Below, piece after piece: positions 8,479 to 48,900 of a DNA stretch of 64,000 nt (the stretch's first letter is position 1; every line of letters begins with the position of its first letter). A model generated the notes under the pieces. The model was not told the DNA's origin. It worked only from the letters and a program-made list of their open reading frames with translations, and did not search any database. The DNA comes from Mytilus trossulus (Eukaryota). Position numbers and translations under genes: made by a program. Where the stretch lies: assembly GCF_036588685.1 (NCBI RefSeq), contig NC_086376.1:17236001-17300000 (forward strand), read 5' to 3'.

Positions 8479-9166
8479 TATAAGAGAATATTGTGAAGAA
8501 GAAAAACGTGTAGAGTTCTTATCAGCACGTCGACAGGTCAGGTGTTACAGAAATGATCTTACTAGTGTTTGATGTGTGGTAAACTAAACGGATTTTATAT
8601 ATAAATACATGTTTCTGTAGAAATAGGGAAAATTGTTGCCAAATTCATTTTACGTTTGAGGTATTTTAAAATCGTTCCTTAAACTTTTTCGAATTTGTAC
8701 AGTATTACAGCTGTATATATGTCCTTCTAGGTTAAAATAAATTAATGATACCATGACTACAATTTTGGTAAAAAATGCATTTTTTTGTTGGCGGGGGGGG
8801 GGGGGGGGGGGGGGCTGAATTTGAAAGCGATGTAAAGGAATTATGAATAAAATGTATCTTCATCATTATCCAATTAGTAAACAACGTTGAATAATGAGAA
8901 TTCCTTGTTTGTACAAATCGTAGTTTTTCATTAAAACTATATATTAACACGTTTTGTTTTGTATAAGAACCCTTTGATAATGCACAGTGCACACCATCAT
9001 CTCGCCTTGTCCTATTCAATATATACATTGCTGTTTGTAATCTCAATCGAAGTGCATTATCTAATATTGAATATAGTTATCAAAGGTACCAGGATTATAA
9101 AAGTGTGTAATAGGCTTGATTTTAAATAACTTACAGTAACAGCAAGCATACCAAGTCAGGTAAAAA

Positions 9167-11797: not shown

Positions 11798-13711
11798 TCA
11801 GTTTACATTTACAACTTTAGCTGTAACGGTATTGACCCTGATTTCACACACAGCTCTTAGTGCGGTCATTCCAAATCCAAATCTGGTCGGACAGTGGCAT
11901 GTGGTGTGGTCATCTATTTGTACAGACTTTCCTGCCTGAATAATTGTGTCTCCTGCGTAACAATTTCTACCTGCAATCACAAGAGTTAAGCTTGAGTAGA
12001 GACAATCAGTAGATTTAAATGTAAAAGGAAACGTACACAAAATAGCATACACAAGTAACTAGAGTTAAACAAGAAGAAAACAGATGAATGTCTATATACC
12101 CAAGCTGCAATATAATTAATTTTTGACAATGTAGTCCCTACAAATGTAATCAGACGACTATATAAACGTAACAGAACATGTAACGTTAGAAGAGCTCACA
12201 ACGAGTAACTGAATATATAAAACGCACAGTCAAATGCATTGTTGCATTTATCTAATTTTAGTAAGGTGCTTTATCCATTGATACTATAAATAAATCATCT
12301 TATATTTTAACAAAATTGCTCATATATACATTACTATGACACATACATTACGTTACTGTAATCACATGTGAATTAATCAAATGTCTTTACAGTATCTAAA
12401 ATTGAAATAAAATTTAGTCAAATCAAAAGAGTGAAACGAAAATTGTAAGGAATTGAGACAACATCCTAGGTAAGGTAAAAAAAAACCGGAACCTAACATG
12501 CTGTTGTTTATCATGCTGATGACTCAATGACAATGAGTTAACATTACAATCTTTTTAATATATAATATATCTTTGATTTCGTTATACTCATATGAGTTTC
12601 GTCGCAAGTTAGTAATTCGTATTATTTTATTTAGATTGTGCACATTTGATATCATACGTTATCACACTAAATCACAGGAATTAGATTCACAGAAATCACA
12701 CGTAAGTATATATATACTGAATTTTGCAAAACTTTCATCGCAAGATTATTTTTGTGAAGCTCATCATTGATACACGTCTTGACACCAAATCAGACGTAGA
12801 ATCGCACACAATATGGGCTTGTTCTGAAATGTATTTTTCAGTTATTTAAAACATTCTAATTAATTCATTTTACATAATTTTCACTACATTGAAGCTTCAC
12901 TTTCTCATCTGATAACCTTTTAGTAACCTCAAGTACAACTTAATTGGAAAGCTTAGACCAAAGTATATAAATCATAGTCATGTGTGCTACCGTCAAAACA
13001 TTATCATTTTCGTAGAACTGTTGTTTGACGTCAATAATCAAAATCTTACTGACATGAATACTTACATGATAAAGATTTGTAAAACCAAAACAATATCGCG
13101 AAGTCGTTAAAACCAACTGATTGAAATAAGTTTTAATATTAAATGGTATCCTTCATTTTTTGCTAATTTCTACAAACATCTAAATAATTTAAATCTTATT
13201 TAAATCTAAATTATTGATTTGATAGATAGTTAGAACCTAATAAAAAGATTTTTTAAACAATCGGTTGAAACTATGCACAGATAAATATTGCAATTACCCT
13301 GCTAAATAATGAACAAAAACTGTTTTAAACTGGTCTTGCATAGTACTGTATTTACCGTCGAAAGAAAGAAAACTAATAATAAATGAGCATGTATCTTCTG
13401 CAATGGTCATTTTAACTGTTGTTTTTCGGATGTATTAATGTTTGTAACTTACCATTTGGACAAACAGAGCAACATTTAGTAGGATCATGCACAGCGTCCA
13501 CACACGTTGGCATGAAACAGTCTGCAATCGCGCATATTACTTTGCCTCCATTACAAAAGCAATGCTCGCATGGGGTTGGTTGGAAAGATTCGCCTTCTTT
13601 GTATAATTTACCATTCTTACTACATCCAGACGCGACACTAATAGACGGTAAAGGATCAACAGCATACACAAGTGGAAGAATAAGGACACTGATTAACAAG
13701 AAGTTCGCCAT
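11798..13711 (-). CDS. Secreted VWC-domain protein, Brorin/VWC2-like, 143 aa, 2 exons
   Basis: Exon 1 13711-13453 MANFLLISVLILPLVYA-VDPLP..CSKNGK..PCEHCFC..CCSVCPN G|GTAAGT. Exon 2 11970-11798 GRNCYAGDTIIQAGKSVQIDDHTTCHCPTRFGFGMTALRAVCEIRVNTVTAKVVNVN*. Confidence 0.9.
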
Positions 13712-14248
13712 GTTCCCGAAAGGTTTCAATGTAATGTACTTGTGAAGTACGAACAGTCTTATCAGTTGAACGTGATCCACAATAAAGTTCTCTAGATACT
13801 ATCTTTGTGATTTATTTGTTTTATTGGATATAAATATTAATTGTAATCGACAAATTGCTAAATGGCTTATTTTAAAAACAAAGAGTTCGTGGGGTTTACA
13901 GTTCGATTATTTTTTATTACTGGTTACTGATCCCCACAGCCCTTTCCTTGAATACTGATATCACAACAAAAGAAGGTCTGACAACACAAAAGAAAAGCTA
14001 GTGTTGTATGAAAACAAGACATAAAGTGTTGCAAATTATCGGGTCATGTCTCGCATAATCATAAAACTGCGATACGAACTATTTATGATGCCTGGTTTTT
14101 TTTTAATGTTCTGGTTTAACTTCTACCATCCTCTGTTACTACTTTGAAGGGTAAAACAGAAGGCAAATATGTGAAGGGACAATACAATAAAGAATTTCAT
14201 TTTAAAGAAAAAATGTCATTTAAAAGAAGGCCACTTGAAAGATTTTAG

Positions 14249-20955: not shown

Positions 20956-21129
20956 ATATAAATGGTAGTAAATGCAATGCATTTATTGATACAAATAAAT
21001 ATCTATTTGTTTCATAGTAGCACAATGAAAACTGAAGTTTAAAATGTCATCCATCGGATGACGGGATTGTGTTATGGAGCCTGTGAATGTCTGATTAACG
21101 TGTATCCCATATCTATTTAACTGTGTAAT

Positions 21130-22170
21130 TAGTAATCTCTATTAGTTTATAAGATATCTCTATTAGTTTATAAGATATCTCTATAAGTTAATAAGATTTC
21201 TCTATTAATTAATAAGATATCTTATAAAGTATATAAGATATCTAACTTCTTTATAAAGATATCTTTTAAATACATACTTTATAAGATATCTTATTAATTA
21301 ATAGAGATATCTTATAAACTAATAGAGATATCTTATCAACTTATGGAGATATCTTATATATTAAATAAGATATCTTTATAACCAATTTAATAAGATATAT
21401 CTACAAGTTAATAAGATATCTCTAAAAGTTTATAAGATATCTCTATTAGTTTATAAAATATCTCTATAAGTTGATAAGATATCTCTATATGTTAATAAGA
21501 TATCTCTAAAAATTTATAAGATATCTATATTAGTTTATAACATATCTCTATTAGTTAATAAGATATCTCTATTAATTAATAAGATATCTTATAAAGTATA
21601 TAAGATATCTTACTTCTTTATAAAGATATCTTTTAAATACATACTTTATAAGATAGCTTATTAATTAATAGAGATATCTTATAAACTAATAGAGATATCT
21701 TATTAATTAATAGAGATATCTTATACACTAGTAGAGATATTTTATTAACTTATGGAGATATCTTATTAAGTAAATCAGATATCTCTATAATTAACTATAT
21801 AAAAGATATCTTATAAATTAATAGAGATATCTTATATTTTAAATAAGATATCTTATATATTTAATAAGATATCTTTATAAACATTTTAATAAGATATCTT
21901 TATAAACATTTTAATAAGATATCTTATTTAATAAATAAGATATCTTATTTAATATATAAGATATCTTTTTTAATATATTAGATATCTTATTTAATATATA
22001 AGATATCTTATTTAATATATAAGATATCTTATTTAATATATAAGAAATCTTATTTAATAAATCAGATATCTCAATTAACATATAAGATATCTTATTTTGT
22101 TATTAAGATATCTCAATTAGTTTATTAGATATCTTATTTAACTTAAATAAATATAATAACGGCTTGCCAT
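21130..22170. repeat. ~1-kb satellite of 21-bp units built on the palindrome AGATATCT, with orientation switches
   Basis: TAAGATATCTCTATTAGTTTA-type units, their reverse complements, and TAAGATATCTTATTTAATATA units. Confidence 0.9.
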
Positions 22171-22171
22171 A

Positions 22172-22490
22172 GATATGTTCCTTACGTCGTAACTACAATT
22201 TCCTTCCCTCTCATGAATGTGATCTACAGAATTAGACTATTAACCGGGTTTTTAATAACATGAGCATCACGACGGGTGCCACATGTGGAGCAAGATCTGC
22301 TTTCCATTCCGGAGCATTTGAGCCACCCCCAGTTTTCGGTGGGGTTCTTGTTTCTTAGTCTTTAGTTTTCTATGTTTTGTCATGTGTAGTATTATTTGAC
22401 TGCTTGTCTTTTTCATTTTTAGCCATGACTTTGTCAGTTTATTTTCGATTTTTTTAGTTTGTGCCTTTGGTATCTTTCGCCCCTCTTTTA
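22172..22490 (+). mobile_element. 3' terminal fragment of a probable Penelope-like element; related pieces at ~17910-18060, 24360-24580, 26360-26530, 26772-26925, 27990-28180
   Basis: CACGACGGGTGCCACATGTGGAGCA.GATCTGCTT..GTCTTTTTCATTTTTAGCCATG..GGTATCTTTCGCCCCTCTTTT shared among copies with a common 3' end; begins with a short ORF end DMFLTS*. PLE assignment is from familiarity, not a search. Confidence 0.55.
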
Positions 22491-30710: not shown

Positions 30711-33081
30711 TTATGTACACATGCTATAATGATTTGGTTCCGCCAGTCGGGTGTCTTGTAATAGTAGGTACGAATTCCCGGTACCATCCTGATTTACATT
30801 AACACTTCTCATTGGTAACATTACATTGTCTGGTGTCATTTCTAAGTATTCCTTGACCTTGGTATTGTCAGCGATCACTGTAGTGTCAACAGTGGTGTCA
30901 TTTAATTTCTTTTCGGCTCTGTTTTCTACGTCTTGGTTTGTAACGGTGGAAACATTTCTTTCAATAAGCTCATAAGCACCTATTCTGTTGTCGCTATTTT
31001 CTTCGCTGTAATTATTTGACATCTTTAAGAAATATTTTCTTGTATGCCTTTTTGTAACGCCAAGATGTATGACTGTTGCGATGAATATCACCAAAATAAT
31101 TACACTTATAAATGTCACATATGCCAAAATTGTACCAAGCGTTATATCTGAAAACAAAATTATCGAGAAGCATTACCGTGAAATATGGTTACGCCGTGTA
31201 ATTTTTGCAAATATCGTGAAGTCTTAGAAAAAAAAAAGTTTATTCCATTTTTTTTCTAATTTCGCAGACAAGTAAGGAATAAAAAATATTGATATCAACA
31301 CGAGGTAATGTGGTGTGGTATGGTTGCCAATGAAACAACTACAATGTATCAACAAAACGGACTAACTATTATAGGCCAGCGTACGTAACAATGAGTAAAC
31401 CGTATAGTTAGAAGCTATAAAAGGCTTTAATGGATTAAGTCTGATTTTATTCAATTTTTTACATTTCATCGCAATCTTGTATATTTGATGAATGTTTTTT
31501 TTCAAAATTGCCTAGCTGTGTTTCTAGATAACATTCGAATTCATAATCAATCAAATGTAATTTAGTTTAGAAAAACACGCCCTATTCATAAAACCTAAAG
31601 AATATCACTACCTGCATCAATATGGGATTCTGTTGATGATGTTTCTGTAACAGTATACAGTGTGTTTTTGTCTGTCCCGACACCCATGCCATCTATTAAA
31701 ACAATGGCAAAATAATCATTATAAAATTATGATAATTTTCATATTTCAATGCAATTGACATAACTCCCAGTTTTTGTTGGTGGTCGTGTTGCTAGTTCTA
31801 TATACTGTTCAATGAAGATATACATATTTTAGTCGAACTTATATTTTGACCATAACGTTGTCAGTTTCTCTCGACTAATGAGTTTGGAACATTCGAATTG
31901 TAAAACTCTTTTTTTTTTATTACACTCTCTACCTAGGAGAAACATTTGATAAACAAAATCTGAATTCAAGATTTTATTGTATTTTTTTACGTTTAAAAAG
32001 AGCAACACCTTTAACATGTTTAAGCCAGAAACATTTTTGCTTTTTCTTTAGTCTTTTTTATTTTTATCACGCCACAGTTTTTAAGTTTACAGTATAAAAC
32101 TTCATGGTCAAGGTCGATGTTCGTTCGTATCCATTGACAATTCTAAAAGTCCCGTTAAAATATTGTCATAATGTACCGAAGACGTGGTAGTTTCTGCGAT
32201 TAGAAGAATGGGAAAACGAACTAAAGTTGCAATTTGATGTCCCAAATCTTTCTGAAAATTAAGATTTTTGCTATGAAAAATGAACCCTGGATTTAAGTAT
32301 TTAAAAGTTGACAGAGTTTTGTTTTATAACAATAGGGTCAGTAACAGAGGGTATAGTATCAAGAACTAAACAAAATAGAGAAAAAACTCATACAATGCTT
32401 TTTTTCTCAAAAATAAGACTCACATTCAAAGTGGTAATTTTCGCACAAAGACGAAATACTCGCAGAATTATGCTTCTTTGTATCAGTAGACATATATCTT
32501 TTATAGTATGGTGTTGACAATTTGTTTTTAATGTAAGCAATTTAGTATTTTAACAGTAATATATTGTTTGTTTATTTACAACTTATGTCGATAACAACAT
32601 TTTTTACATTTGTAGTAAAACATACCAATAATTATGACAAGCATTCATCATATAACGAGACAGAAACTGATGTGAATTCAAGTGCAACGCAATTGTTAAA
32701 GGCATATGTAAATGTATGTATAACTTTCACATTAAACAATGCATTAGTACTTTCAAATAAAAACAAATCAAAATATGCATATATACAAACCAACGATATT
32801 TAAAAGGACTTCGGTAGTATTAACTTTTCCATCTATAGTTTTGATACATTTGTATACTCCTGCGTCTGCCCTTGAAACATTCTCTATCTGCAAATTGTAT
32901 TCTCCCCTTTGTATGTTACCCACTATCTTTAACTTGTGTTTGTGAGGTAAATTGATATTAATAATGCCTCGATCACCGTAAACTGTATTCTCCCGTATCC
33001 ATTGACTTCGGTTCTCGAACGTCTGACAATGTAAGATAACTGTTTCTCCCACTCGTCCTATGATTTCTGTCATTGCATGCA
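30711..33081 (-). CDS. Ig V/I-set + stalk + transmembrane + ~110-aa Tyr-motif tail; distal module with no own signal-peptide exon found
   Basis: Exons 33081-32791 (GETVILHC..SQWIR..YNLQIENVSRADAGVYKC), 31692-31612 (DGMGVGTDKNTLYTVTETSSTESHIDA) and 31147-30711 (TM TILAYVTFISVIILVIFIATVIHLGV; tail motifs YELI, YLEM, YLLL, YSMC); all phase 1 with AG/GT. Confidence 0.85.
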
Positions 33082-33711
33082 CTAGTAATAAGAAAAATGA
33101 AAGATTTCAAATATGTGTGAAAAAAAAGGAAAATCACAAAAATACTGAATATTCAAGACTGAAAGTTCAACTCAAATAGCAAAATCAAAAGTTGAAACAC
33201 AACAAACGAATAAAATAACAACTGTTACATTTCCAACTTTGTACAGATATTTTCTAATGTAGAAAATGGTGGATTAAACCTGGTTTTAAAGCGTTTAGCC
33301 TCATCTTGTTTGACAGTCGCAAACTAAAATATACAACTCGTTTCATACACAATCAGAATATGCCGATTTGTCACCCACACAAATAAGGTAATTGTCTTTA
33401 ATATCAAAAGTTTAGATAAATGAGATTTTCATATCATATAAATTCTGAGGAAGAGTTGTCAATGGCAGTAAACTATTGGATAAAAACTTGACTCATATCT
33501 AAGTACCCGGCCACGTCCACTTGCATTTTTGTCCATCTGATGAGTTAAGCCTTTTTCAACTGATTTTTATAGTTCGTTCTTATGTTGTTTTGTTATATCA
33601 ATGTCCCAGGTTAGTGGGAGGGTTGGGATCCCGCTGATATTTTTTACCCCGCCACATTATTTATGTATTTGCCTGTCCAAAATCAGGAGTCTGTAAATTC
33701 AGTGGTAGTCG

Positions 33712-35154
33712 TGTAGTAGTGTCATTTTTACGCCTATAAAATAATAGTAAAAATATCTTTAAAATTCTTTAATTAATTGCATTTATTATAACGTTTAAAT
33801 CTAGAATTTTGATAAAGGAATATTATTATTTAAATCAAATCTACACTTTACTTTTTATATTGAGTTCATGAATATTCAAAAGGTTCTTACTTTAAATTAC
33901 GTATTTGATTGGTCATTGTGATTTCGCGGTCAATTTATATTTTGTATTGACCAGGTATAATTTGCACGGGAACTTGACAATTACAGTCGCATTATATTGT
34001 ATCCCGATTTATATAACTGTGTTATGGTTTTAATTCATTGTGGACACAACATATTACATATTGATGTAAGTTAACTTCTTTATTGTATAATTAGTATTTT
34101 TCACATGTAAATGATAAATTTAGCAAAGTTTCTATTGTATGACTTCGTTCTCCTCGTAAAGTTTGGTTATTACATAAGTATGATAGATGTACCCGAGAAT
34201 CTTTTATTTAGCTTCGTGCTACATGTATTTTATTATCTACCGTTAATTTGTCACGGTAGAACTAGATAGTTGCTTAGCTATTTGATTATTGACACAGATA
34301 ATTTATATTTCATAAATGGCGGCATATTAGACAAAATAAGGAAAAGAGATAAAGTTGATATTTATTTGTACATTTATATTATACATTGTAATGATAGAAG
34401 TATAACTATAAATGAACTTGAGTTATTTTGTCATATCGTATGTTTTAATATTTTATGAGTCCGAATGTTTATGATTGCATTTTGGTTTTAGGACTCCATT
34501 GATGTAATTATATACAGAATATACATTGTGAACTGTGCCTTGTCCTTGCCAGTAAAAACTCACTCCACAAGTGGTAAGAGTCAATCTATTTTTAACTATG
34601 TAATGTTGTAAACAAGACGTTATGAATTATTTCCCTTTAAATATGCGGTTTTAAGCATATTTAATATATTGGCTTAATTAGTCTTTATGAAAATAGTATT
34701 TACAATTCGACGATTGTTGTAACGTAATTGTATGTAAAGAACAAACAATATATTATGTTCCGATCAGTTAAATGTTATATTTGCAGTTTTAACTTTAGTT
34801 TTGTACCGTACACATAGTAAACCAGTAAACACTATATAGTACATTATTTACGATAATGGGTTACATTCTTGTGTAGTGTTTCACAATGAGAAATGAAAGT
34901 ACATGTAACATCAGCTCACTGATAGTCTATAATATGTAATAGCTGTTTAGTACACAGTATTAAAGTGCATTGTATTTTACCATAACTATATGTGATAATG
35001 TATAACTTAGGGTACTTGAGTTTTATAATAGATCTGTTATTTATAATTGTGATATTGTTATTTCAGAGTTTATTTGTATACTACTGGTATAATAAATAAT
35101 CCGAACCCTAAACAGAGTTTGTTATATCTTTATCCAAGAATCGAACCTGTTACA
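33712..35154 (+). repeat. 5' LTR (1443 bp)
   Basis: TGTAGTAGTGTC...GAACCTGTTACA; direct repeat of 41315-42759. Confidence 0.97.
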
Positions 35155-35157
35155 AAA

Positions 35158-35170
35158 TGGCGCCCAACGT
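35158..35170 (+). promoter_or_regulatory. Primer-binding site, tRNA-Lys(CUU) type
   Basis: TGGCGCCCAACGT, 3 nt after the LTR, matches the first 13 nt of the tRNA-Lys1,2 PBS. Confidence 0.85.
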
Positions 35171-36511
35171 AGTTTAATGGATTGATGGCACAGTCGAATT
35201 AGGGTACCAGTGTGTGTGTGTGTGTGTGATCACCGAAGCAGACGACAGACGAGACCACGTGATGTTTGTTTACCAACAATGCGCAGATGTCCGAAGATGC
35301 ACGTGCCAGTGTTTACATCCGTTGATGTCCACATGTGTTTATTTACATTAACATTTTATACCGTGTTCCAGTTATGAAGATTTGTGAAACCGGAAGTTAC
35401 TTTTAGTAACTTAGACTTTTAGATTTTCTTAATTGAAAATAGAACTTTTGTTGTTTAAATTAATTCTTATTTTTGTGATTGGAATTGGAAAAGTAACTTA
35501 GCTTTATAAGGTAGGCTTTTTACTTATATATATATTATAATTGTATACTGAAATAGTTTGCTTACACACTTTGAAAAAACATTTTACACATACATTAATT
35601 TGTTTACATAAAGAAGACTTTAATTAGATAGCATACATTGGTCCATTACTATATCGTATTGCAACATCAACACTTATTACAGCAACATACATTGATAGAT
35701 AGCATACATACATACATACATGTAGTGTTATTGGTATACCACAGTTCAACTTGAACTTAGTCACACTTAAACATTTTTTACACATTGACATTGTTCATTC
35801 ATTCATACACTTTTGGACTTTGAATTTTTTTTGTTAACGTCCTACATATTGACCTTTCATACTTAAACATTTTACATTCGAACATTATTTTTTTTTATTT
35901 TTGTTTATTGAACATTAGCATCACTTGGTGATTGATTGTTTACATTTAAAGGAGAGTGCAGATGTACTTGTAGAATTTATTGACTTATATTTTTACACAT
36001 TAAAAGTACATTTTATACAGAAAGCAACACTATCGTATACAGTTATAGTATATAGTACCTTTACTCTGTGTTGAACTTAGACAGAGTTTGAAAAATCTAT
36101 AGTTTGATTAAATAGATTTAAAATAAGTGACTGTTGAATTATTTTAATTTATTCAATTACAAATATAATTTGATTGAGGTGCACTCATTTGCATATGAGG
36201 CTAAATCATTTTAATATTTGGTAGTACTTATTTATCAATGCATACTCATGTGTATTTGATATAATTTGTTTGTATTTTAGTAATTGTAGAATTGAGTATT
36301 AGTTATTGATTAAAATTTACCATTTTGATTAACTGTAATTATGATACTCTAGTGTGGTGGTTATGTAGTTTATAGTTGTATTACATAATTTTTGTTTTGA
36401 AACACCTTTGATAGACATAGGCTTTTGGAAGTGAAAGTATTTTGTTTTTCATTTTCGGTTTTGTTGTTGGCATTTATTAAGTAAGGGGCTACTACATTCT
36501 TCCAATTAGTC

Positions 36512-39500
36512 ATGGAACAGTATGGTCCAAAGAAGAAACGCCATCGTCGTAGACGTAGACAACGACCCTACTGGGACAACGACTTTGACAACCAAGCCAA
36601 CCAAAACTACTCACCTACTGCAACTCCTATTCCAAAAGATCCTATTGTATGTTATAGATGCGGAGGACTTGATCACATAGCCATTGGTTGCCGTATACGA
36701 TTAGACCATTCACGACAAGCCTTTAACTTCCAGCAGATCAACACTGAAGATAGAACATATGCATACCAACAGCAACAGTCAACACAAGATGTCACTGACC
36801 AACTAATAGGTAACACCAACGAAGTCACTGTTAAGATACATGGTATTCCAGCTACAGCTTTATTAGACACAGGTTCCACAGTTAGCACTGTCAGCGAGTC
36901 ATTTCATCGAAAATACTTACCTGATCATACTATACAGACACTTAACCGTATTTTACACATTGAATGTGCTGATGGAGAGAACTTACCGTATCATGGTTAC
37001 ATCACTGTCGACTTAGAATTACCTGGAGCATCACCATCAGATTTACCACAACCTTGCTTACTACTAGTAGTTCCTGATAGCAACTACAACAAGGCCGTGC
37101 CTTTGCTACTTGGTACCAACGTATTGCATAGAGCTATGGATGATGTGAAACAACGTTTTGGTCATCGGTTTTTGCAAAACGCCAACTTGATTACACCATG
37201 GTATATGACGTTTCGATGCCTTTTACTCAGAGAGAAAGAACTCAACAAGAGAAACAACAGGTTAGCATTGATTAAATGCGCAGAGGGAAAGACTGTTCGC
37301 ATTCCACCGAATAAAGATGTTATGCTTCAAGGCTATATGGACCATGAGTTGCCGTACCACCCTGTATGTGGAATACTTCAACCAACACATAAGGCAGCAG
37401 TACCTGAAGACTTAGACATAGCTCCAACTCTTGTCAACTACCAATACAGAGATAACAGATTAGTACCTGTACATATCAGCAATGTTACAACGAGAACCAT
37501 AACAGTTTCACCGAACGCTATCCTATGTGAGCTGCAACCTGTCTCAATTGCTGATATAGAAACACCAGATGGTACAGATTATGATGTTTTGAATGACGTT
37601 CACTTACCAACAGACGTACTCAGTGATGAACAGTTAGAGAAAGGTAAACAACTACTTAGACAGTATAGAGATGTTTTTAGTATGTCAGACACCGACATTG
37701 GTCATACAGATGCAGTTCGTCATAGAATTGATCTCACTGATGATACACCGTTCAAGCAGAGACATAGGCGTATACCACCAGCCATGTTTGATGAAGTTCG
37801 TACACATCTACAACAACTACTTACAGCTGGAATAATACGACGTTCACACTCACCTTGGTCATCTAATGTGGTACTTTGTCGAAAGAAGGATGGGAAACTC
37901 AGAATGTGTATTGATTACAGACAACTTAATCAAAGGTCCGTGAAGGATTCCTACGCTTTGCCACGCAGCGAGGAGATACTAGACGCTCTTGGAGGTAATA
38001 CGCTATATACTGTACTGGATATGAAGAGCGGGTACCATCAGGTAGAGGTAGAAGAGTCCCATAAGCAGAGAACAGCTTTCACTGTCGGTCCACTAGGTTT
38101 TTATGAATTTAACCGCTTGCCGTTTGGATTAGTCAACAGTCCAGCGACATATCAGAGACTAATGGAAGAGATACTAGGAGACCTACATCTTGATATCTGC
38201 TTCATCTATTTAGACGATCTAATCATATTCTCCGATACGTATGAGGAACATCTAGTAAGATTAGAGAAAGTATTACAGAGATTAAGAGAAAGCAACCTGA
38301 AATTATCGCCAAAGAAATGCTCATTCCTTCAAGAGAAAGTCAAATATATAGGTCATATCGTCTCCAAAGATGGAATACAACCAGATCCTGCAAAGATAGA
38401 CAAGGTAACTAACTGGCCACGTCCAACAACACCAGAAGAAGTCCGTCGTTTCCTTGGTTTTGTAGGATACTACCGAAAGTTTGTTAAAGATTTTTCTAAA
38501 ATAGCAAGACCACTCACCGACTTAATGCCTCCACCGAAAAGCTCGTCAAAGAAACGCAAGCCAAAACCTCGAGATCCAAACAGTCAATCATGGATATGGG
38601 GAGATCTTCAAGAACAAGCTTTCCAGACACTCAAAACAGCACTTGCTTCACCACCTATACTTGGTTTTCCACGGTACAACAAACAGTTTGAGTTACACAC
38701 TGATGCATCCATGCAAGGTTTAGGAGCTGTATTATATCAAGAACAGGAAAACAAGAAGCGTGTCATTGCTTACGCCAGTAGAGGACTCAGTAAGACCGAG
38801 CGAAATTACCCTGTACATAAATTAGAATTTTTGGCATTAAAATGGGCTGTCACCGAGAAATTCCACGACTACTTATATGGAAACACCTTTACAGTATTGA
38901 CAGACAATAATCCTCTTACATACGTGCTAACATCAGCCAAACTAGATGCAACTGGACACCGTTGGATTGCAGCATTAGCATCGTACAACTTTAACATCAT
39001 GTACAGACCAGGTTCCAAGAATGCCGATGCTGATTCTTTATCAAGATTGCCCGAGTTACTTGGACGTTCACCATCCAACTTAGAGGCTACTTCTGTCAAA
39101 GCCATCTGCAATCTACAGCATACTCAACCTTTCGTCGATACTTTGTCGATGAATACTCTTGCAACTGTTGATGATACATCGTTACCAGCACAGCATTTGG
39201 TTGACATCAAATCAGAACAAAAGAGCGATTACAGAATTAAAGAATGGATTTATTGGGTCTCCGAACACCGCAAACCAAACAAGGAACAACTAGAAAGATC
39301 AGCAGAGAATACATGGTTCATTAACAACTTCGACAAGTTACAACTGAAAGATGGTATTCTATTCAGAGAAGCTACATTTGATTGCCAGACAGTTAAGCAA
39401 TTTGTTTTACCAGAAACTTGCGTTCCGAAAGTCATGAAAGCACTTCACGATGACATGGGCCACCAAGGACGAGACAAGACATTGTCACTTATAAGAGATA

Positions 39501-41224
39501 GATTTGTATGGTATGGGATGACAAGAGATGTAGATCAGTGGATTACACAATGCAACAGATGCATAAGACGAAAAACACCAACTAACGAAAGAGCACCACT
39601 AGTTAGTATTGAAACATACCAACCACTTGAACTAGTATGCATGGACTACTTATCACTGGAAAGATCCAAAGGAGGGTTTGAAAATGTTCTTGTCATTACC
39701 GATCACTTTACCCGGTATGCCTTGGCAATTCCAACGAAGAACCAAACAGCAAAGACTACCGCCGAAGCATTTTTCAACCACTTTGTAGTACATTACGGAT
39801 TGCCAGAACGTATTCACAGTGACCAAGGTGCCAACTTTGAATCGAACATCATTAAAGAACTATGTAACATCACAGGCATGCAGAAATCACGTACTACACC
39901 TTACCATCCTATGGGCAACGGTACTACAGAGCGTTTCAATCGAACATTACTGAGTATGTTAGGTACATTGGAAACAACACAGAAGAAAGATTGGAAAGCA
40001 CATATTGCTGGATTGGTACATGCTTACAACTGCACTAGACAGACAACTACCAGATACTCACCTTACTTCCTTATGTTTGGTAGAGAACCAAGATTACCGA
40101 TTGACATCGCCTTCAACCTTCCTGGTAATGAACAGAAGCAACCAGCAGTGACGAAGTATATTGAAACTGTACAGAAAAGATTGAAAGAAGCATACGAGTT
40201 GGCAACAAAACACTCGAGAATAGGGAAAGATAGACAGAAATACAACTACAACAAGAAAGCTAGATCAGCCATCTTACAAACCGGCGACAGAGTCTTAGTA
40301 AAGATCTTGGCCTTCGACGGGAAACATAAGCTAGCTGACAAGTGGGAAGAAGATCCATACCAGATTGTTAATCAGCCTAACAAAGAGATACCTGTGTATG
40401 AGGTCAAGAAAGAAAACGGAACTGGAAGGAAGAAGACACTTCATCGCAATCTTCTACTTCCAATTGGATTTCTGCCAAAGACTGTTGAGTCTGAGATAGC
40501 TCCTGCACCTAGACAGAGGCGTAAACCGCTGAGGTCTGGACGACCACCGACGAAGTCTTTTGGGAACAGCATTGAAAAGATGTCTGCATCGGAATCAGAT
40601 GAGGAGTCGGAGCAGGGGTATTGGATAATAGAGACAGGGAGGAGTACACCTAGCAACACTGACAGTGAAGCAGATATGGTGGAAAGACTTAGGGTAGATG
40701 ATGTAACTATCAGCGACACGGGTGACGATCTTGATGCCGTTGGTAGTAGCCAGGTTAATGGTTTAGTAGAGGACGCTTTACCTTCAGATATAGTAAATGC
40801 TGAAGAACCTAACCCTGGAACAGAGGATGTTGAACCTGCAGCGACTGGTCAAAATATTGAAGATGACACTTTAGAATCAGATAATGGCAGTGCGTTGACG
40901 GAGGATCCATCTCTAGATGAAATGGCAGATGAACCCACACATGATGAAACTACAAGAGTACAACCAGTAAGAGAAAGAAGACGTAGATACTTACCTACAC
41001 CACCACGGCACATACCAGAACCTACCACACTTGCTAGACCTCAGAGAAATCGAAAACCACCGAAGTACCTGCAAGATTATGTAACTACAACAAAGCAGGC
41101 TACAACTAAACCAGATTGGTTAGCTAAAGTACATTGGTTAGAAAGTCAGGCAGAAACAGGACGTTTTAGAGGTCTAGAGATTGAACTATCGAGGGCTATC
41201 ATCAAGATTATTGAGAACAGTTGA
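36512..41224 (+). CDS. pol: Gypsy polyprotein, 1570 aa: Arg-rich leader, CCHC knuckle, protease, RT, RNase H, integrase, acidic tail
   Basis: CYRCGGLDHIAIGC; LLDTGS; RMCIDYRQLN, LDMKSGYHQ, RLPFGLVNSP, YLDDLII; LHTDAS..ERNY..LEFLA..TDNNPL..N.DAD.LSR; HDDMGH..CNRC, MDYL, HSDQG, ERFNRTL. Confidence 0.97.
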   Translation: MEQYGPKKKRHRRRRRQRPYWDNDFDNQANQNYSPTATPIPKDPIVCYRCGGLDHIAIGCRIRLDHSRQAFNFQQINTEDRTYAYQQQQSTQDVTDQLIGNTNEVTVKIHGIPATALLDTGSTVSTVSESFHRKYLPDHTIQTLNRILHIECADGENLPYHGYITVDLELPGASPSDLPQPCLLLVVPDSNYNKAVPLLLGTNVLHRAMDDVKQRFGHRFLQNANLITPWYMTFRCLLLREKELNKRNNRLALIKCAEGKTVRIPPNKDVMLQGYMDHELPYHPVCGILQPTHKAAVPEDLDIAPTLVNYQYRDNRLVPVHISNVTTRTITVSPNAILCELQPVSIADIETPDGTDYDVLNDVHLPTDVLSDEQLEKGKQLLRQYRDVFSMSDTDIGHTDAVRHRIDLTDDTPFKQRHRRIPPAMFDEVRTHLQQLLTAGIIRRSHSPWSSNVVLCRKKDGKLRMCIDYRQLNQRSVKDSYALPRSEEILDALGGNTLYTVLDMKSGYHQVEVEESHKQRTAFTVGPLGFYEFNRLPFGLVNSPATYQRLMEEILGDLHLDICFIYLDDLIIFSDTYEEHLVRLEKVLQRLRESNLKLSPKKCSFLQEKVKYIGHIVSKDGIQPDPAKIDKVTNWPRPTTPEEVRRFLGFVGYYRKFVKDFSKIARPLTDLMPPPKSSSKKRKPKPRDPNSQSWIWGDLQEQAFQTLKTALASPPILGFPRYNKQFELHTDASMQGLGAVLYQEQENKKRVIAYASRGLSKTERNYPVHKLEFLALKWAVTEKFHDYLYGNTFTVLTDNNPLTYVLTSAKLDATGHRWIAALASYNFNIMYRPGSKNADADSLSRLPELLGRSPSNLEATSVKAICNLQHTQPFVDTLSMNTLATVDDTSLPAQHLVDIKSEQKSDYRIKEWIYWVSEHRKPNKEQLERSAENTWFINNFDKLQLKDGILFREATFDCQTVKQFVLPETCVPKVMKALHDDMGHQGRDKTLSLIRDRFVWYGMTRDVDQWITQCNRCIRRKTPTNERAPLVSIETYQPLELVCMDYLSLERSKGGFENVLVITDHFTRYALAIPTKNQTAKTTAEAFFNHFVVHYGLPERIHSDQGANFESNIIKELCNITGMQKSRTTPYHPMGNGTTERFNRTLLSMLGTLETTQKKDWKAHIAGLVHAYNCTRQTTTRYSPYFLMFGREPRLPIDIAFNLPGNEQKQPAVTKYIETVQKRLKEAYELATKHSRIGKDRQKYNYNKKARSAILQTGDRVLVKILAFDGKHKLADKWEEDPYQIVNQPNKEIPVYEVKKENGTGRKKTLHRNLLLPIGFLPKTVESEIAPAPRQRRKPLRSGRPPTKSFGNSIEKMSASESDEESEQGYWIIETGRSTPSNTDSEADMVERLRVDDVTISDTGDDLDAVGSSQVNGLVEDALPSDIVNAEEPNPGTEDVEPAATGQNIEDDTLESDNGSALTEDPSLDEMADEPTHDETTRVQPVRERRRRYLPTPPRHIPEPTTLARPQRNRKPPKYLQDYVTTTKQATTKPDWLAKVHWLESQAETGRFRGLEIELSRAIIKIIENS

Positions 41225-41303
41225 AATGTAAACAGCTTGACGAGGACGACAAGGTCATAAGAGGGGAGAAAGACACAATGACATGGAAGTCATTTTCTTC
41301 AAC

Positions 41304-41314
41304 AGAGGGGAGAA
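41304..41314 (+). promoter_or_regulatory. Polypurine tract
   Basis: AGAGGGGAGAA directly before the 3' LTR; identical copy at 41260-41270. Confidence 0.85.
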
Positions 41315-42759
41315 TGTAGTAGTGTCATTTTTACGCCTATAAAATAATAGTAAAAATATCTTTAAAATTCTTTAATTAATTGCATTTATTATAACGTTTA
41401 AATCTAGAATTTTGATAAAGGAATATTATTATTTAAATCAAATCTACACTTTACTTTTTATATTGAGTTCATGAATATTCAAAAGGTTCTTACTTTAAAT
41501 TACGTATTTGATTGGTCATTGTGATTTCGCGGTCAATTTATATTTTGTATTGACCAGGTATAATTTGCACGGGAACTTGACAATTACAGTCGCATTATAT
41601 TGTATCCCGATTTATATAACTGTGTTATGGTTTTAATTCATTGTGGACACAACATATTACATATTGATGTAAGTTAACTTCTTTATTGTATAATTAGTAT
41701 TTTTCACATGTAAATGATAAATTTAGCAAAGTTTCTATTGTATGACTTCGTTCTCCTCGTAAAGTTTGGTTATTACATAAGTATGATAGATGTACCCGAG
41801 AATCTTTTATTTAGCTTCGTGCTACATGTATTTTATTATCTACCGTTAATTTGTCACGGTAGAACTAGATAGTTGCTTAGCTATTTGATTATTGACACAG
41901 ATAATTTATATTTCATAAATGGCGGCATATTAGACAAAATAAGGAAAAGAGATAAAGTTGATATTTATTTGTACATTTATATTATACATTGTAATGATAG
42001 AAGTATAACTATAAATGAACTTGAGTTATTTTGTCATATCGTATGTTTTAATATTTTATGAGTCCGAATGTTTATGATTGCATTTTGGTTTTAGGACTCC
42101 ATTGATGTAATTATATACAGAATATACATTGTGAACTGTGCCTTGTCCTTGCCAGTAAAAACTCACTCCACAAGTGGTAAGAGTCAATCTATTTTTAACT
42201 ATGTAATGTTGTAAACAAGACGTTATGAATTATTTCCCTTTAAATATGCGGTTTTAAGCATATTTAATATATATTGGCTTAATTAGTCTTTATGAAAATA
42301 GTATTTACAATTCGACGATTGTTGTAACGTAATTGTATGTAAAGAACAAACAATATATTATGTTCCGATCAGTTAAATGTTATATTTGCAGTTTTAACTT
42401 TAGTTTTGTACCGTACACATAGTAAACCAGTAAACACTATATAGTACATTATTTACGATAATGGGTTACATTCTTGTGTAGTGTTTCACAATGAGAAATG
42501 AAAGTACATGTAACATCAGCTCACTGATAGTCTATAATATGTAATAGCTGTTTAGTACACAGTATTAAAGTGCATTGTATTTTACCATAACTATATGTGA
42601 TAATGTATAACTTAGGGTACTTGAGTTTTATAATAGATCTGTTATTTATAATTGTGATATTGTTATTTCAGAGTTTATTTGTATACTACTGGTATAATAA
42701 ATAATCCGAACCCTAAACAGAGTTTGTTATATCTTTATCCAAGAATCGAACCTGTTACA
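41315..42759 (+). repeat. 3' LTR (1445 bp)
   Basis: Matches the 5' LTR; the only difference noticed is one extra TA at ~42268. Confidence 0.97.
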
Positions 42760-42952
42760 GTCGTTTGTTTATGTGTTACATATTTGTTTTTCGTTCATTT
42801 TTTTTTATATAAATAAGGCCGTTAGTTTTCTCGTTTGAATTGTTTTACATTGTCTTATCGGGGCCTTTTATAGCTGACTATGCGGCATGGGCTTTGCTCA
42901 TTGTTGAAGGCCTTACGGTGACCTATAGTTGTTAATGACTGTGTCATTTTAG

Positions 42953-45900
42953 TCATAAGCTCATATAAACACATATTCTGTTGTCTCTATTTTCTTCGCT
43001 GTAATTGTTTGACATCTTCAAGAAATATTTTCTGGTATGCCTTTTTGTAACACAAAGATGTATGACTGCTGCGATAAATATCACCAAAATAATTACACTT
43101 ATAAATGTCACATATGCCAAAATTGTACTAAGCGTTATATCTGAAAACAAAAGTATCGAGAAGCATTACTGTGAAATATTGTTACGCCGTGTAAGTTTTG
43201 CAAATATCGTGTGAAGTCTTAGAAAAAAAAGATTATTCCATTTTTTTTCCTAACTTCGTAAACAAGTAAGTAATAAAAAATATTGATATCAATACGAGAT
43301 AATGTGGTGTGATATGGTCGCCAATGAAACAACTATCAACAAAACGGACTAACTATTATGGGCCAGCGTACGTAACAATGAGTAAAACCGTATAGTAAGA
43401 AGCTATAAAGGGCTTTAATGGATAAAGTCTGATTTATTCAATTTTTAACATTTCATCACAATCTTGCATATTTGATGAATATGTTTTCAAAATTGCCCAG
43501 CTATGTTTCTAGAGACACATTCGAATTCATAATCCATTAAAAAGTAATTTAGTTTAGAAAAACACGCCCTATGCATAGAAACCTAAAGAATATCTTTACC
43601 TGCATCAATATGTGTTTCTGTTGATGATCTTTCTGTAACAGTATAAAGATTTTTTTTGTCTGTCGCACCACCCATGCCATCTATTAAAACAATGGTAAAA
43701 TAGTCATTATAAAATTATTATGATTTTCATATTCTAAAGCATATGATATAACTCTCAGTTTTTATTGGTGGTTGTGTTTCTTATTCTTTAGTTCTATATA
43801 AAGTCTGATGACGATATATATTCATCTTTTAGTCAAACTTATATTTTGGACATAACGTTGTCAGTTTCTCTCGACTAATGAGTTTAGAATGTTCGAATTG
43901 TTCCCCCCCCTCCTTTTTGTGATTGCACTCTCTATCTAGGAGAAAACATCTTGTTTCAATTTTTTATTATATTTTTTTACGTTTTTGTAACGACCATTCC
44001 AAAAGCAGCAACTTGAACATGGTTATATCTCCCATGAAGTGAATACGACACTCCATTTAAGAATTAGAGTAACACCTTTAAGCCAGAAACATTTCTGCTT
44101 TTTCTTTTGTTTTTTGTTTTTATCACGCCACAGTTTTTAAGTTTACAGTATAAAACTTTATGGTCAAGGTCGATGTTCATCCATAACCATTGACAGCCAT
44201 AAAATTCTAAAAGACCCTATAAATTATTTTCATAATGTACCGGAGACTAAACAGTTTCTGAAATTAGAAAAATGGAACACGAACCAAAGTTGCAATTTGA
44301 TGTCCTAAATCTTTCTGAAAATTGACATTTTCGCTACGAAAAAAGAACCCCGAACTTAAGTATTTTAAGGTTGACACAGTTGTTTTTATAATAATACGGT
44401 CAGCAATAGCAAGGTAGACAAAAACCTAAATAACTCATACAATGCTTTTTAAAAAAAAAATAAGGCTCACATTCAAGATGGTTATTTCGCACAAAGACGA
44501 AATACTTATTTGTATCAGTATACATATATCTTTTAAAGTATGTGTTTTTTTAAGAACTTTAGTATTTTCACAGCTTTATATAATTGGTTTATTTATAACT
44601 TATGCCGCTTAAAGTTTTATTTCGCATTTTTAATAAAACATATCAATAATCAATCATATACACGGAAATAGACTGACGTGAATTCAAGTTCAACGCAATT
44701 GTTCAATGCATATGCACATATATATATATGTTTCACATAAAACGATGAATTAGTACTTCAAATCAAAGCAAATCAGAGTATGCATATACAAACCCACGAT
44801 GTTCAAAAGCACTTCGGTAGTATTAACGTTTCCATCTATAGTTTTGAAACATTTGTATACTCCTGCGTCTGACCTTGAAACATTCTCTATCTGCAAATTG
44901 TATTCTCCCCTTTGTATGTTACCCACTATCTTTAACTTGTCTTTGTGAGGTAAATTGATATTAATAATGCCTCGATCACCGTAAACTGTATTCTCCCGTA
45001 TCCATTGACTTCGGTTCTCGAACGTCTGACATTGTAAGATAACTGTTTCTCCCACTAGTCCAATGATTTCTGTCAATGCATGCACTAGTAATAAGAAAAA
45101 TGAAAGATTTCAAATATGTATGAAAAAAATAAAATCACAAAAATACTGAATATTCAAGACCAAAATCAAAAGCTCAAAGTCAACAAACGAATGAGATAAC
45201 AACTGTTATATTTTCAACTTTGTACAGATATTTTCTTATGTAGAAAATGATGGATTAAACCTGGGTTTAAAGCGCTAAGCATCACCTTGTTTTATAGTCG
45301 CAAACTAAAATATACAACTCGTTTCATACACGACCTAAAAATGCCGATTTGGCACCAACAAAAATATGGTAATGGTCTTTAATATCAAAAGTTTAGATAA
45401 ATGAGATTTTCATATCATAAAAAATTCTGAGGAAGAGTTGTCAATGGCAGTAATCTATTGGGTAAAACCTTGACTCATATCTAAGTATACCAAACAATAA
45501 GCAAAAAGGCCAATTTTGTCATATTTAACAATTTCCGTACTGTGTTTCTGATATTATAAATGACATTTCAAACCAAATTTTCCAGATAATTCCTTCCCAT
45601 TCATTTATCAACAAATAAACCAAAATTCTGAAGGAGTGAATCCTTATTTCATTTCAGTGTATTTATCTTTAGGAATTAGTAACCTAACAAAACAATGGGA
45701 GACTTTTTGCATTTCATCATCTATAATACGTTATTTAAACAATATGAAAATAAAGATATGTAGTATATGCTTGCCAATGAGACAATTATCCATCAAAGTT
45801 CAAATGAAGTGAACGTTAGCAATTATAAGCAATCGCACGGCCTGCAACAATTAGAAATACCCATTTAGTATAGTTGTCTATATAAGACTCCGACATGACA

Positions 45901-48900
45901 AGTATGAATTAGTTCAATTGTGAAAGCATCCGGCCTAGTTTATAACAAAATAATTCAGGGAAACCAAATACGACAGATATGAAACAACGACATTAATAGT
46001 TATCAAAGGTACCAGGATTATAATTTAGTTCGCCAGACGCGCGCTTCGTCTTCACAAGACCCACCAGTGACGCTCATATCAAAATATTTATAAAGCCAAA
46101 CTAGTACAAAGTTAAAGAGCTTGAGGATCCAAAATTCCAAAAAGTTGTGCCAAATACGGCTAAGGTAATCTATGCATGGGATAAGAAAATCCTTACTTTT
46201 TCGAAACATACCAAATTTTGTAAACAGGAAGAAATGTATCTTTTTTTTTGGTGAAATTAATTATTGATATAGTATTTTTATATTATATCGACATTGCTTG
46301 AAAGATCGTCAATATCGGATGACGAATTTATATCTTCTACTTGATTTTTTTCTACAAGTAACGGAAGTAACGGCTCAAAATGATACGGTCGAATATCTAA
46401 AGTTAGAGAGTTGCCTTGAAAACTGATGCTAACACTGTCCATTGTTTAATTATGAAGAAATATGATCGACTTCGTCCTCATTGAGACATTTTCTCGGCTT
46501 GTATCCACTGACGTCATCACGATCACGTGACCGGTATCTCATTAAAAATCAAAGATTACGACAAGCGCTGGATTCTTTGACCATTTAAAGGCCGTTAAAT
46601 GATGTTTTGACAAGAAAAATTTATTACAATATATTTTTTTTACCAATATTTATTAACTAATAAAAAAAAATAAAAAAATGTGTCACGTCTCCAACAGCTA
46701 CTACATGTTCCTCTTTTGGGACAGACACATAAATAAGGTTGCCGGGCTAAACATGTTTGTGAGCACTCAACCCTCCCCAACCTTAGACAATAGTTCACAG
46801 CACAATATAAGAATAAAAAGTAAAATCACAAAAATACTGAACTCAGAGAAAAATCAATTCGGAAAGTCCGTTATCATCAGATCGGTGCAAAACATAAAAA
46901 AAAATAAAAAAATAAAACAAATTCACAGATCAAAAGTTGCAGGGTATATCTACATCCCTGACAAAAAAAAGACAAAGAGAACATATATGAGATGACTCGC
47001 AGTTACCCGACAGCTAGTTCAAAGACAATACCAAATAATACAGGAAATCATGTATTCAGGACTAGAATATTAATCAGGAAACGCAACATCCGAAGGATTT
47101 AGCATAAAAACTTCATTTACCGTCAGCGAAAAAAACCGACTCTGTGCCATGCAAAAATAAAGGTATCGACAGAATGTAGTGTAGTAGTGCATATTAAGTG
47201 TATACTAATTATATTTAATATAGTTTTAATTCACTGATAATAAAATCAATACTTATTGATGCATGATTTTTTTATTAGTTGTTAGTGGCTTGGAACTAGC
47301 TATCAGATAGCTGCGAGTACTCTCAGATCTGTTCATTGTGTCTTTTTGTGTCTTGTATTTTTGTCCATCTGATGAGTAAAGCCCTTTTTAACTGATTATT
47401 ATAGTTCGTTCTTATGTTTTACTGTTATACCACTGTCCCAGGTTAGGGGGAGGGTTGGGATCCCGCTAATATGTTTAACCCCGCCACATTATTTATGTTT
47501 GTGCCTGTCCCAAGTCAGGAGCCTGTTATTCAGTGGTTGTCGTTTGTTTATGTGTTTCATATTTGTTTTTCGTTAATTTTTTTTATATATATAAAGGCCG
47601 TTAGTTTTCTCGTTTGTATTGTTTTACATTGTATAATCGGGGCCTTTTATAGCTGACTATGCGATATTGGCTTTGCTCATTGTTGAAGGCCGTAGGGTGA
47701 CCTATAGTTGTTAATGTCTGGGTCATTTTGGTCTCTTGTGGACAGTTGTCTCTTTGGAAATCATACCACATCTTTTACATATTATACCAATAAAGACAAT
47801 ATTCAAAGATCTAATTTGAATTGGTAACTTTTTTCGAATAAATGTATTCAAAGGATAGATAAGTTTATCAAAACCGTATATAAATATCTGGGTTTTGGAA
47901 CAACGTCTACGTTAAACTTAGAATGTGCTAATATATTTGAAATTCGCTTTTTATAGGTACAATCAAACTTGCAAACCTAATCTTTGTATCTATAAAAGTA
48001 AAGGTTAAAAGTTTTTTTGGGGAAACGAAATCCCTGACTTAATAATTTACCAGTGATACCTTATAATAGATTACGCTCATTGAAATCCCAAATCGTGACT
48101 ACAGACTACAACAGTGAAAAGTGAATAGTGCACATACTTCAGCCCGGACGTGTTATTTTATCCTTAAGGACTACAGTGAAGTATTTACGTCATACCACCA
48201 CCACAATGGTGAGCGTTTTGTCGGCCGCTATAAACACAGAACTCTTAACTTTCAAGTACTTTTGTTTTTAGTTCTATAGAGATGGGCGTTCTAATTACAT
48301 TTTGTTTTATTTCTAAACTATTTTTGAAATGTAATTTGGAATCAATTGACCTTTTTTTGTCAGATTTCTCACATTTACATCGAGTTCTTTAAACATCTAG
48401 GATTTTTTATTTTAAATATTTGCCTAATTTTTATTCTCAATTGTGATCACTTATACGGAACTTTGTAAGTAACTGCATGGCTAAGTATGAAAGTTTTTCT
48501 ATTAATATTTGATCGTCTAGTTTTATTTTGTAGTTTACTGTAAAGAAATAGTTTAAAACTAAAACGTTTTCTTCCCGTGAAAGAGACGCTGTTAAAGAAT
48601 TGCTGAAAAGTATGAATGATTATAAAAATCGACATAAATTTCTTTGTCGAATTTTAATCAAGCAATTATAACAATAGCAAAAGTGAACATTCATTTCAAT
48701 TACCTTCCTTACTTATTATATTGAACTGACAGTATTTGAACTTTATTTCCCAAAAAGAAAAATATCAATAACTTAAACACGATTTCGAATAAAAACAAAA
48801 CAAAACAAACAAAAATTAAAAAGAAAATCCATAAAACAAAAATTAAAAAAATAATAAAAAAACACCAAAAAACATTACCACTCTGGGATCATTTTACTTT

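Follow-up and report, generated by a model that had tools for sequence, protein, structure and literature searches.

A 64,000-nucleotide stretch of the genome of the mussel Mytilus trossulus (NC_086376.1, positions 17,236,001 to 17,300,000; hereafter the window, with coordinates counted from its first letter) carries a complete, freshly inserted long terminal repeat (LTR) retrotransposon of the Ty3/Gypsy type that encodes an intact Pol but no Gag capsid (CA). The copies and trees described below indicate that this element is a member of an old, still-spreading capsid-less lineage and not a one-off. Capsid is held to be required for LTR retrotransposon replication, and Pol is normally packaged through its fusion to capsid. 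The element is probably a capsid parasite that has its own enzymes and uses the particles of Gag-bearing relatives primed by tRNA-Lys. The lineage shows that in an animal the loss of capsid can be a lasting strategy instead of a dead end, and the element raises the question of how a capsid-less Pol enters a particle, or whether a particle is needed at all.

A recently mobile element with no capsid

The complete element spans 33712-42759 (9.05 kb) and has the hallmarks of the Metaviridae, namely LTRs bounded by TG...CA, a primer binding site (PBS), a polypurine tract (PPT), and a short target duplication. Its Pol domains follow the Ty3/Gypsy order of protease (PR), reverse transcriptase (RT), RNase H (RH), and integrase (IN) in one frame. 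An earlier reading of this DNA from its letters alone (the sequence-only reading) had proposed very recent transposition, which is borne out by LTRs of 1443 bp (5') and 1445 bp (3') that differ by a single 2-bp indel and no substitutions, and by an intact GTCG duplication at both ends. The insertion target is a copy of a host interspersed repeat, and an uninterrupted copy of this repeat (~47352-47733) contains GTCG once. The features of the element, all on the + strand, are as follows.

33708..33711 (+), left target-site duplication GTCG, present as a single GTCG in the empty-site copy of the host repeat
33712..35154 (+), 5' LTR, 1443 bp, TG...CA
34574..35066 (+), candidate 493-nt GT..AG intron within the LTR, from one contig joint in run X2 (guessed to be an RNA run), with donor and acceptor taken from the sequence
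35158..35170 (+), primer binding site, 13 nt complementary to the 3' end of host tRNA-Lys(CTT) plus CCA
35171..36511 (+), noncoding AT-rich leader, 29% GC, resembling the leaders of Gag-bearing relatives
35390..35420 (+), leader motif CCGGAAGTTAC..GTAAC.., a predicted hairpin and candidate packaging or regulatory signal, kept in families A-D
36512..41224 (+), single open reading frame (ORF) of 1570 aa: nucleocapsid-like tip, PR, RT, RH, IN, and acidic tail; no capsid
36527..36574 (+), Arg tract and PYW motif, aa 6-21, common to families A-D and not in Gag-bearing sisters E and F
36650..36691 (+), single CCHC zinc knuckle, aa 47-60, homologous to the knuckle in the sisters' Gag
36824..37132 (+), aspartic protease, aa 105-207, DTG, in frame with the knuckle and with no slippery site
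37880..38986 (+), reverse transcriptase, aa 457-617 (YLDD), and RNase H, aa 696-825
39410..40039 (+), integrase zinc-binding and core domains, aa 967-1176
41304..41314 (+), polypurine tract, with the clade motif GGAAGTCATTTT ahead of it
41315..42759 (+), 3' LTR, 1445 bp
42760..42763 (+), right target-site duplication GTCG

The Gag capsid domain of autonomous Ty3/Gypsy elements is missing from this ORF, whereas the CCHC knuckle of the nucleocapsid (NC) is retained. Counted from the ATG at 36512, only 46 residues precede the knuckle, in agreement with the earlier claim that there is no space for matrix or CA. A Gag profile built from nine Gag sequences of the nearest relatives gives 406-468 bits on all eight Gag-bearing elements (used in building or as a test) and no match better than E 9 in the six frames of all eight capsid-less elements. 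Similarly, the Pfam PNMA domain is detected in the Gag-bearing sisters and is absent from aa 1-126 of the ORF. The LTRs hold no ORF of 100 aa. In the leader, the longest stop-to-stop frame has 63 codons, 33 from its first Met, slightly above the ceiling of 60 aa given in the sequence-only reading.

The sequence-only reading had also treated the interval between the PBS and the ATG as space left by gag. This interval is AT-rich and noncoding as described, although it measures 1354 nt from the start of the PBS and not 1.34 kb. Sister families E, F, and G have leaders of 1.28-1.52 kb with 28-29% GC, and leader lengths are 1.5-2.4 kb among relatives with two ORFs and 1.2-2.1 kb among the capsid-less families A-D. 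Because the leaders of Gag-bearing relatives match in length and base composition, the 1.35-kb AT-rich leader is the normal 5' untranslated region of the lineage, not a decayed gag left as a gap. The capsid was excised cleanly from between the start codon and the knuckle.

The short N-terminus that remains looks like a mature nucleocapsid, with a basic tail followed by a knuckle. In the sisters, Gag carries a short basic patch ahead of the same knuckle. Ty3 NC, a basic protein of 57 aa, has a single knuckle, and genomic RNA is bound by the basic part as well as by the knuckle (PMC4974528). The Arg tract had been proposed as a nuclear localization signal or an RNA-binding segment. The second role fits the NC-like composition, and because a basic tail plus one knuckle is the composition of Ty3 NC, a nuclear localization role is possible but not needed.

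An old lineage that lost its capsid once

Searches covered the 1.3-Gb genome, and the RT search scored 97 of 2539 candidates, so the counts given here are lower bounds. The capsid-less elements form four families (A-D), with the studied element in family A, which has at least four further genomic copies with an identical type of N-terminus. Families B, C, and D are 61-68% identical over aa 1-250, and each has the Arg tract, the PYW motif, and the knuckle fused to protease. The RT search returned at least 23 matches at 79% identity or more, at least 11 of them with long open frames (1544-1597 aa). The sequence-only reading had allowed that sister copies might carry a normal gag, but all 23 matches lie at loci without a capsid match in the PNMA or Gag searches. 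Young copies are present in all four families: LTR identity is 99.7-99.9% in the eight full-length copies examined (over 1362 bp for family B), whose open frames are 1572-1597 aa. The same form thus recurs at several loci, and six of seven checked copies have their own 4-bp target duplication, the other (L069) having a rearranged 5' end.

Selection has kept the enzymes of these elements. Within-family dN/dS is 0.03-0.18 in all seven pairs (aa 15-1330), which indicates purifying selection, and a Gag-bearing control pair gives 0.11. Synonymous sites are saturated between the capsid-less families. Together, purifying selection and saturated synonymous sites mean that the enzymes are in use and that the capsid is long gone.

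In a tree of 27 RT-RH-IN rows, all from this genome, the nine capsid-less rows form a single clade (100/100), so that capsid loss defines one clade, as the sequence-only reading had suggested it might. The clade is sister to E, F, and G (99/97), in which a PNMA-type capsid is fused in frame to Pol, and the two-ORF families fall outside. An alternative grouping of the capsid-less elements with two-ORF tRNA-Lys families is rejected (p-AU 0.015; 16 rows, with five near-copies and distant rows excluded). The nearest Gag-bearing relatives share 75-78% RT identity. E, F, and G have the same knuckle and Pol as the mussel families A-D, and capsid is absent only in the latter. Gypsy elements with a PNMA-type capsid make up the Barthez lineage (PMC3670739); going by the PNMA match, in trees that contain no reference elements, E, F, and G would belong to it.

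A TTTAAAC slippery site follows the knuckle in all four two-ORF families shown and is missing from A-G, which read straight through. Tree and sequence together point to two-ORF ancestors with a -1 frameshift, then a fused Gag-Pol, and then one branch that lost its capsid once, kept the NC knuckle, and acquired an Arg-rich tip. The order, with the frameshift lost first and the capsid second, would follow from the root used in the tree. A reversed frameshift that would yield free NC or Gag in fused forms was considered and rejected: TTTAAAC is absent from A-G, and the one AAATTTG, in E, is in the wrong frame.

Several copies show other peculiarities. Three family A copies or solo LTRs (L052, L060, L062) lie within tandem-repeat arrays, which could reflect target preference or survival bias. 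One family A copy (L055, C14) and one family B copy (L145, C7) have lost most of their interior yet have LTRs 99.6-99.8% identical, and were either mobilized in trans or deleted after insertion. At C7:78.85 Mb, a family C copy (L031, L032, L034) has its Arg tract-knuckle-protease segment tandemly repeated three times, 1240 bp apart. A family B copy at C3:17.13 Mb sits between two blocks of a large tandem array of tRNA-Lys(CTT) genes with 1.1-kb spacing (L234, C3:16.99-17.34 Mb; 277 pattern matches genome-wide). Two unnamed proteins, P0002 and P0148, look like additional capsid-less families.

How the element may borrow a shell

In the mechanism that we favor, the capsid-less element would make an NC-PR-RT-IN polyprotein that has no CA-CA contacts and instead uses its basic tail and knuckle to hold the element's RNA. 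This RNA and the enzymes would then enter together into particles formed from the Gag of co-expressed relatives primed by tRNA-Lys. A Pol without capsid is barred from the CA contacts of the lattice, so the knuckle and Arg tip would most simply tether the polyprotein to its own RNA. The element's own RT and integrase would copy and insert it, and the helper would supply only the shell. Since these enzymes make helper LTR ends unnecessary, matching LTRs would not be required, which fits the observation that no Gag-bearing family resembles the element in LTR or leader. Coexisting in the genome are Gag-bearing relatives whose primer site is of the same kind and whose LTR stretches are 99.6-100% identical. 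The likeliest donors would be the frameshifting two-ORF families, because frameshifting should yield free Gag; the fused sisters are the alternative. Free Gag was probably already scarce in the fused ancestor; in Ty3, a fusion mutant is reportedly limited by capsid supply.

The capsid-less families share signals of their own. The leader motif CCGGAAGTTAC, with its predicted hairpin, lies 220-290 nt after the primer site in all four, and family D has a two-sided change in this hairpin. The motif has 17 matches genome-wide (control, 0), of which 16 are at capsid-less loci and the remaining one (C6:56567226) is a family D-like fragment. The clade motif GGAAGTCATTTT before the PPT has 29 genome matches (control, 0). 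Seven of these that were otherwise unexplained were inspected; none has Gag, and they are fragments of Pol, copies with deletions, or a bare 3' end. The first eight letters of the leader motif, CCGGAWRT, recur in A-D and in three of four two-ORF leaders but in none of four fused leaders (at most 0.04 expected per leader), which might serve as a weak lead to the donor. In the studied element, two tandem purine-rich PPT-like stretches lie ahead of the 3' LTR (41240-41314).

Three runs of raw RNA reads from a related species have reads that map to the element (95, 74, and 22; depth 0-4). In runs X21 and X23, the first mate is mostly on the minus strand over the leader and ORF, as for sense RNA in most stranded libraries. 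The sparse reads of run X24 are mostly in the opposite orientation.

Certain observations weigh against borrowing from relatives or against the history given above. No helper element was pinpointed, and packaging is a step that we infer. Long open frames are found in 11 capsid-less copies and in only four fused sisters; because the capsid-less copies outnumber the fused sisters, the parasite model must invoke other donors. The lead offered by CCGGAWRT is only 8 nt long, and we suppose that it may be an ETS-like transcription-factor site. The leaders of A-D show no similarity to those of E, F, and G beyond a short B-E match at the 3' end. A young family A copy (L051) is missing half of its knuckle, so the knuckle of capsid-less elements may not be needed in cis. 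Finally, a 127-row FastTree keeps the capsid-less clade (99) without resolving its sister relation to the fused forms, and places 16 other knuckle-first polyproteins at four other positions, one of them a 51-member cluster.

Alternative explanations

The sequence-only reading offered three mechanisms, of which a capsid parasite fits best. Another was a bipartite system, in which the shell would come from a dedicated Gag-only partner that the Pol of this element copies in return. Young Pol-less families do exist in the genome (Gag-only elements of 2.4 kb encoding 445-449 aa with no knuckle, Gag-only elements of 2.2 kb, and Gag+protease elements), and the knuckle-free 2.4-kb Gag would complement an NC-Pol. 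However, these families have other LTR ends, a different primer site (presumably Leu-type), and no leader motif, and they do not match A-D at the DNA level. Compared with the Gag of the sisters, theirs is 22-27% identical or gives no match, and the Gag+protease elements are closest to another two-ORF family (L130). The loci that share signals with the element likewise argue against a partner, in that 14 family A LTR loci besides two full-length sisters are solo LTRs, fragments, or Pol-bearing deletion copies, and none of 11 further loci chosen by PPT or leader match has Gag. LTR, PPT, leader, PNMA, and Gag searches, in which 150 of 257, 121 of 265, and 40 of 72 candidates were scored, turned up no Gag-only element whose LTR or PBS signals match, and at that coverage such a partner is unlikely. 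A capsid that is encoded yet hidden, by extreme divergence or by splicing from elsewhere in the element, is much harder to credit. In its favor, families A, B, and C have a possible donor (AAG|GTAGG) 350-380 nt downstream of the PBS, family A has a possible acceptor immediately upstream of the ATG, and single-sequence structure prediction of aa 1-220 was uninformative (mean pLDDT 33). Against this stand the short leader frames, the lack of long LTR ORFs, the few residues before the knuckle, and the silence of the Gag profile described above, and leader conservation between families consists of short noncoding blocks with indels. No leader splice joint was seen in the RNA reads, at a depth (0-3) too thin to exclude one. 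A one-off deletion or an assembly error, for which no point in favor was found, can be set aside almost entirely. It is refuted by the four further family A copies and three further families that share the N-terminus, by a contig from an independent run that crosses the leader-ATG-knuckle junction, and by Mytilus galloprovincialis proteins at NCBI that open with the N-termini of families A, B, and C.

The remaining mechanism is capsid-independent replication, in which a shell-free, possibly nuclear ribonucleoprotein (RNP) would form as the Arg tract and knuckle draw RNA, tRNA, and enzymes together. We consider this improbable, and slightly more so than a Gag-only partner. A single loss, after which the lineage long persisted and radiated without a cognate helper in sight, is what it would lead one to expect, and the Arg/PYW tip is novel and conserved. 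It also gains from the 16 knuckle-first polyproteins without a capsid match elsewhere in the tree (P0010-P0012, P0014, P0016, P0020-P0024, P0026, P0030, P0031, P0033, P0043, P0055), which come from other sources as protein only, begin with a short N-terminus followed by a knuckle (two knuckles in three of them), and may be independent capsid losses. A metagenome scan of 80 loci, 55 of them examined, gave Gag-profile matches in 41 of the 55; the only capsid-less N-terminus among the 55 belongs to a family C member (L155). One further metagenome locus (L204) has knuckle and protease in frame on a contig without upstream DNA, and a scan of viral contigs found no relative. Against a shell-free mode, selection maintains the protease, and retropepsins usually work inside particles; suitable Gag donors, moreover, are present and young. 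In Ty3, CA is critical for Gag multimerization (PMC4974528), and the gag-defective case that has been tested is packaged in a relative's particles (PMC3735527). It is accordingly doubtful that the lineage escaped capsid altogether through an RNP built on its Arg-rich tip, in a step repeated several times among marine Gypsy elements. The capsid parasite that uses the particles of Gag-bearing relatives is the reading compared with known systems below.

Relation to known systems

The sequence-only reading regarded the element as an undescribed system. No animal Gypsy case was found in the literature searched, which was mostly open-access and left Repbase, GyDB, and supplements, any of which could already list it, outside its scope; the excerpts of PMC3315495, PMC12440569, PMC10516033, PMC10294476, and PMC10886601 describe no such element. 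The idea itself is not wholly undescribed, because BARE2 and Tos17 are known gag-defective elements that retain pol. The mussel element has the features that mark such cases: no Gag capsid, an intact pol, recent mobility, and a PBS shared with a co-active Gag-bearing relative.

The RNA of BARE2, a Copia element of barley, is packaged in BARE1 particles (PMC3735527). The proposed model resembles BARE2 in that no Gag is made, pol is probably still translated, and the RNA travels in a relative's particles. The two differ in that BARE2 has an untranslatable gag and is itself a subfamily of BARE1, its helper (PMC3735527), whereas in the mussel element, an animal Gypsy, the capsid is physically gone and no helper of the same family is present. 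The rice Copia elements Tos17 and RN304 are also alike, with gag cleanly removed, pol, LTRs, PBS, and PPT intact, activity retained, and the sister gag-less as well; the Tos17 helper, Lullaby, was inferred from a shared PBS (PMC3977881). Tos17 has no CCHC knuckle (PMC3977881), whereas the mussel element keeps its knuckle in frame with protease and adds the Arg tip, and its lineage comprises at least four families with saturated synonymous divergence. What is new here is an animal Gypsy element that has kept a nucleocapsid fused to protease, has radiated into several families, and has no close helper.

Foamy viruses offer an analogy for the packaging of a CA-less Pol, since their Pol has no capsid fusion and enters particles via viral RNA, although these viruses have their own Gag and Env and belong to the Retroviridae (PMC3196705, PMC3705302). 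TR-GAG (PMC4350172) and the Sabrina and WHAM Gag-protease elements (PMC9744471) show that partly coding LTR elements can be long-term partners of relatives. Unlike the mussel element, these have retained Gag and lost Pol; comparable families occur in the mussel genome. Fish CsRN1 and other families lack a gag detectable by profile search (PMC11117352). The cereal element Derami, considered as a Pol-only parallel, is not Pol-only (PMC5738225, PMC9744471).

Among the Pol-less mussel families, the 2.4-kb Gag-only family (L133, L134, L136, L138; C2, C1) has LTRs of ~297 bp, is TR-GAG-like, and has no close Pol-bearing relative that was seen. The 2.2-kb family (L233, C3) encodes 322 aa with a knuckle, has an LTR of 518 bp, and is TR-GAG-like in an animal. 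The Gag+protease elements without RT or integrase (L121-L128 and L140; L135, L137, and L139) are young, with LTRs of up to 2 kb that are 97.5-100% identical. The genome thus keeps the full series of frameshifting, fused, and capsid-less elements together with mirror-image Gag-only families, and provides native material usable for study. Annotation that judges intactness from RT and integrase alone would class the capsid-less elements as autonomous.

Other features of the window

An older tandem duplication of ~2.5 kb (30964-33505 and 42955-45487; 84-86% identical) flanks the insertion on both sides. The left portion of the window has repeated minus-strand open frames encoding von Willebrand factor type C domains (8110-8544 and 13412-13798), which would be host gene exons or a tandem family. 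A strongly AT-rich array of 21-bp repeats with inverted blocks lies at 21105-22181.

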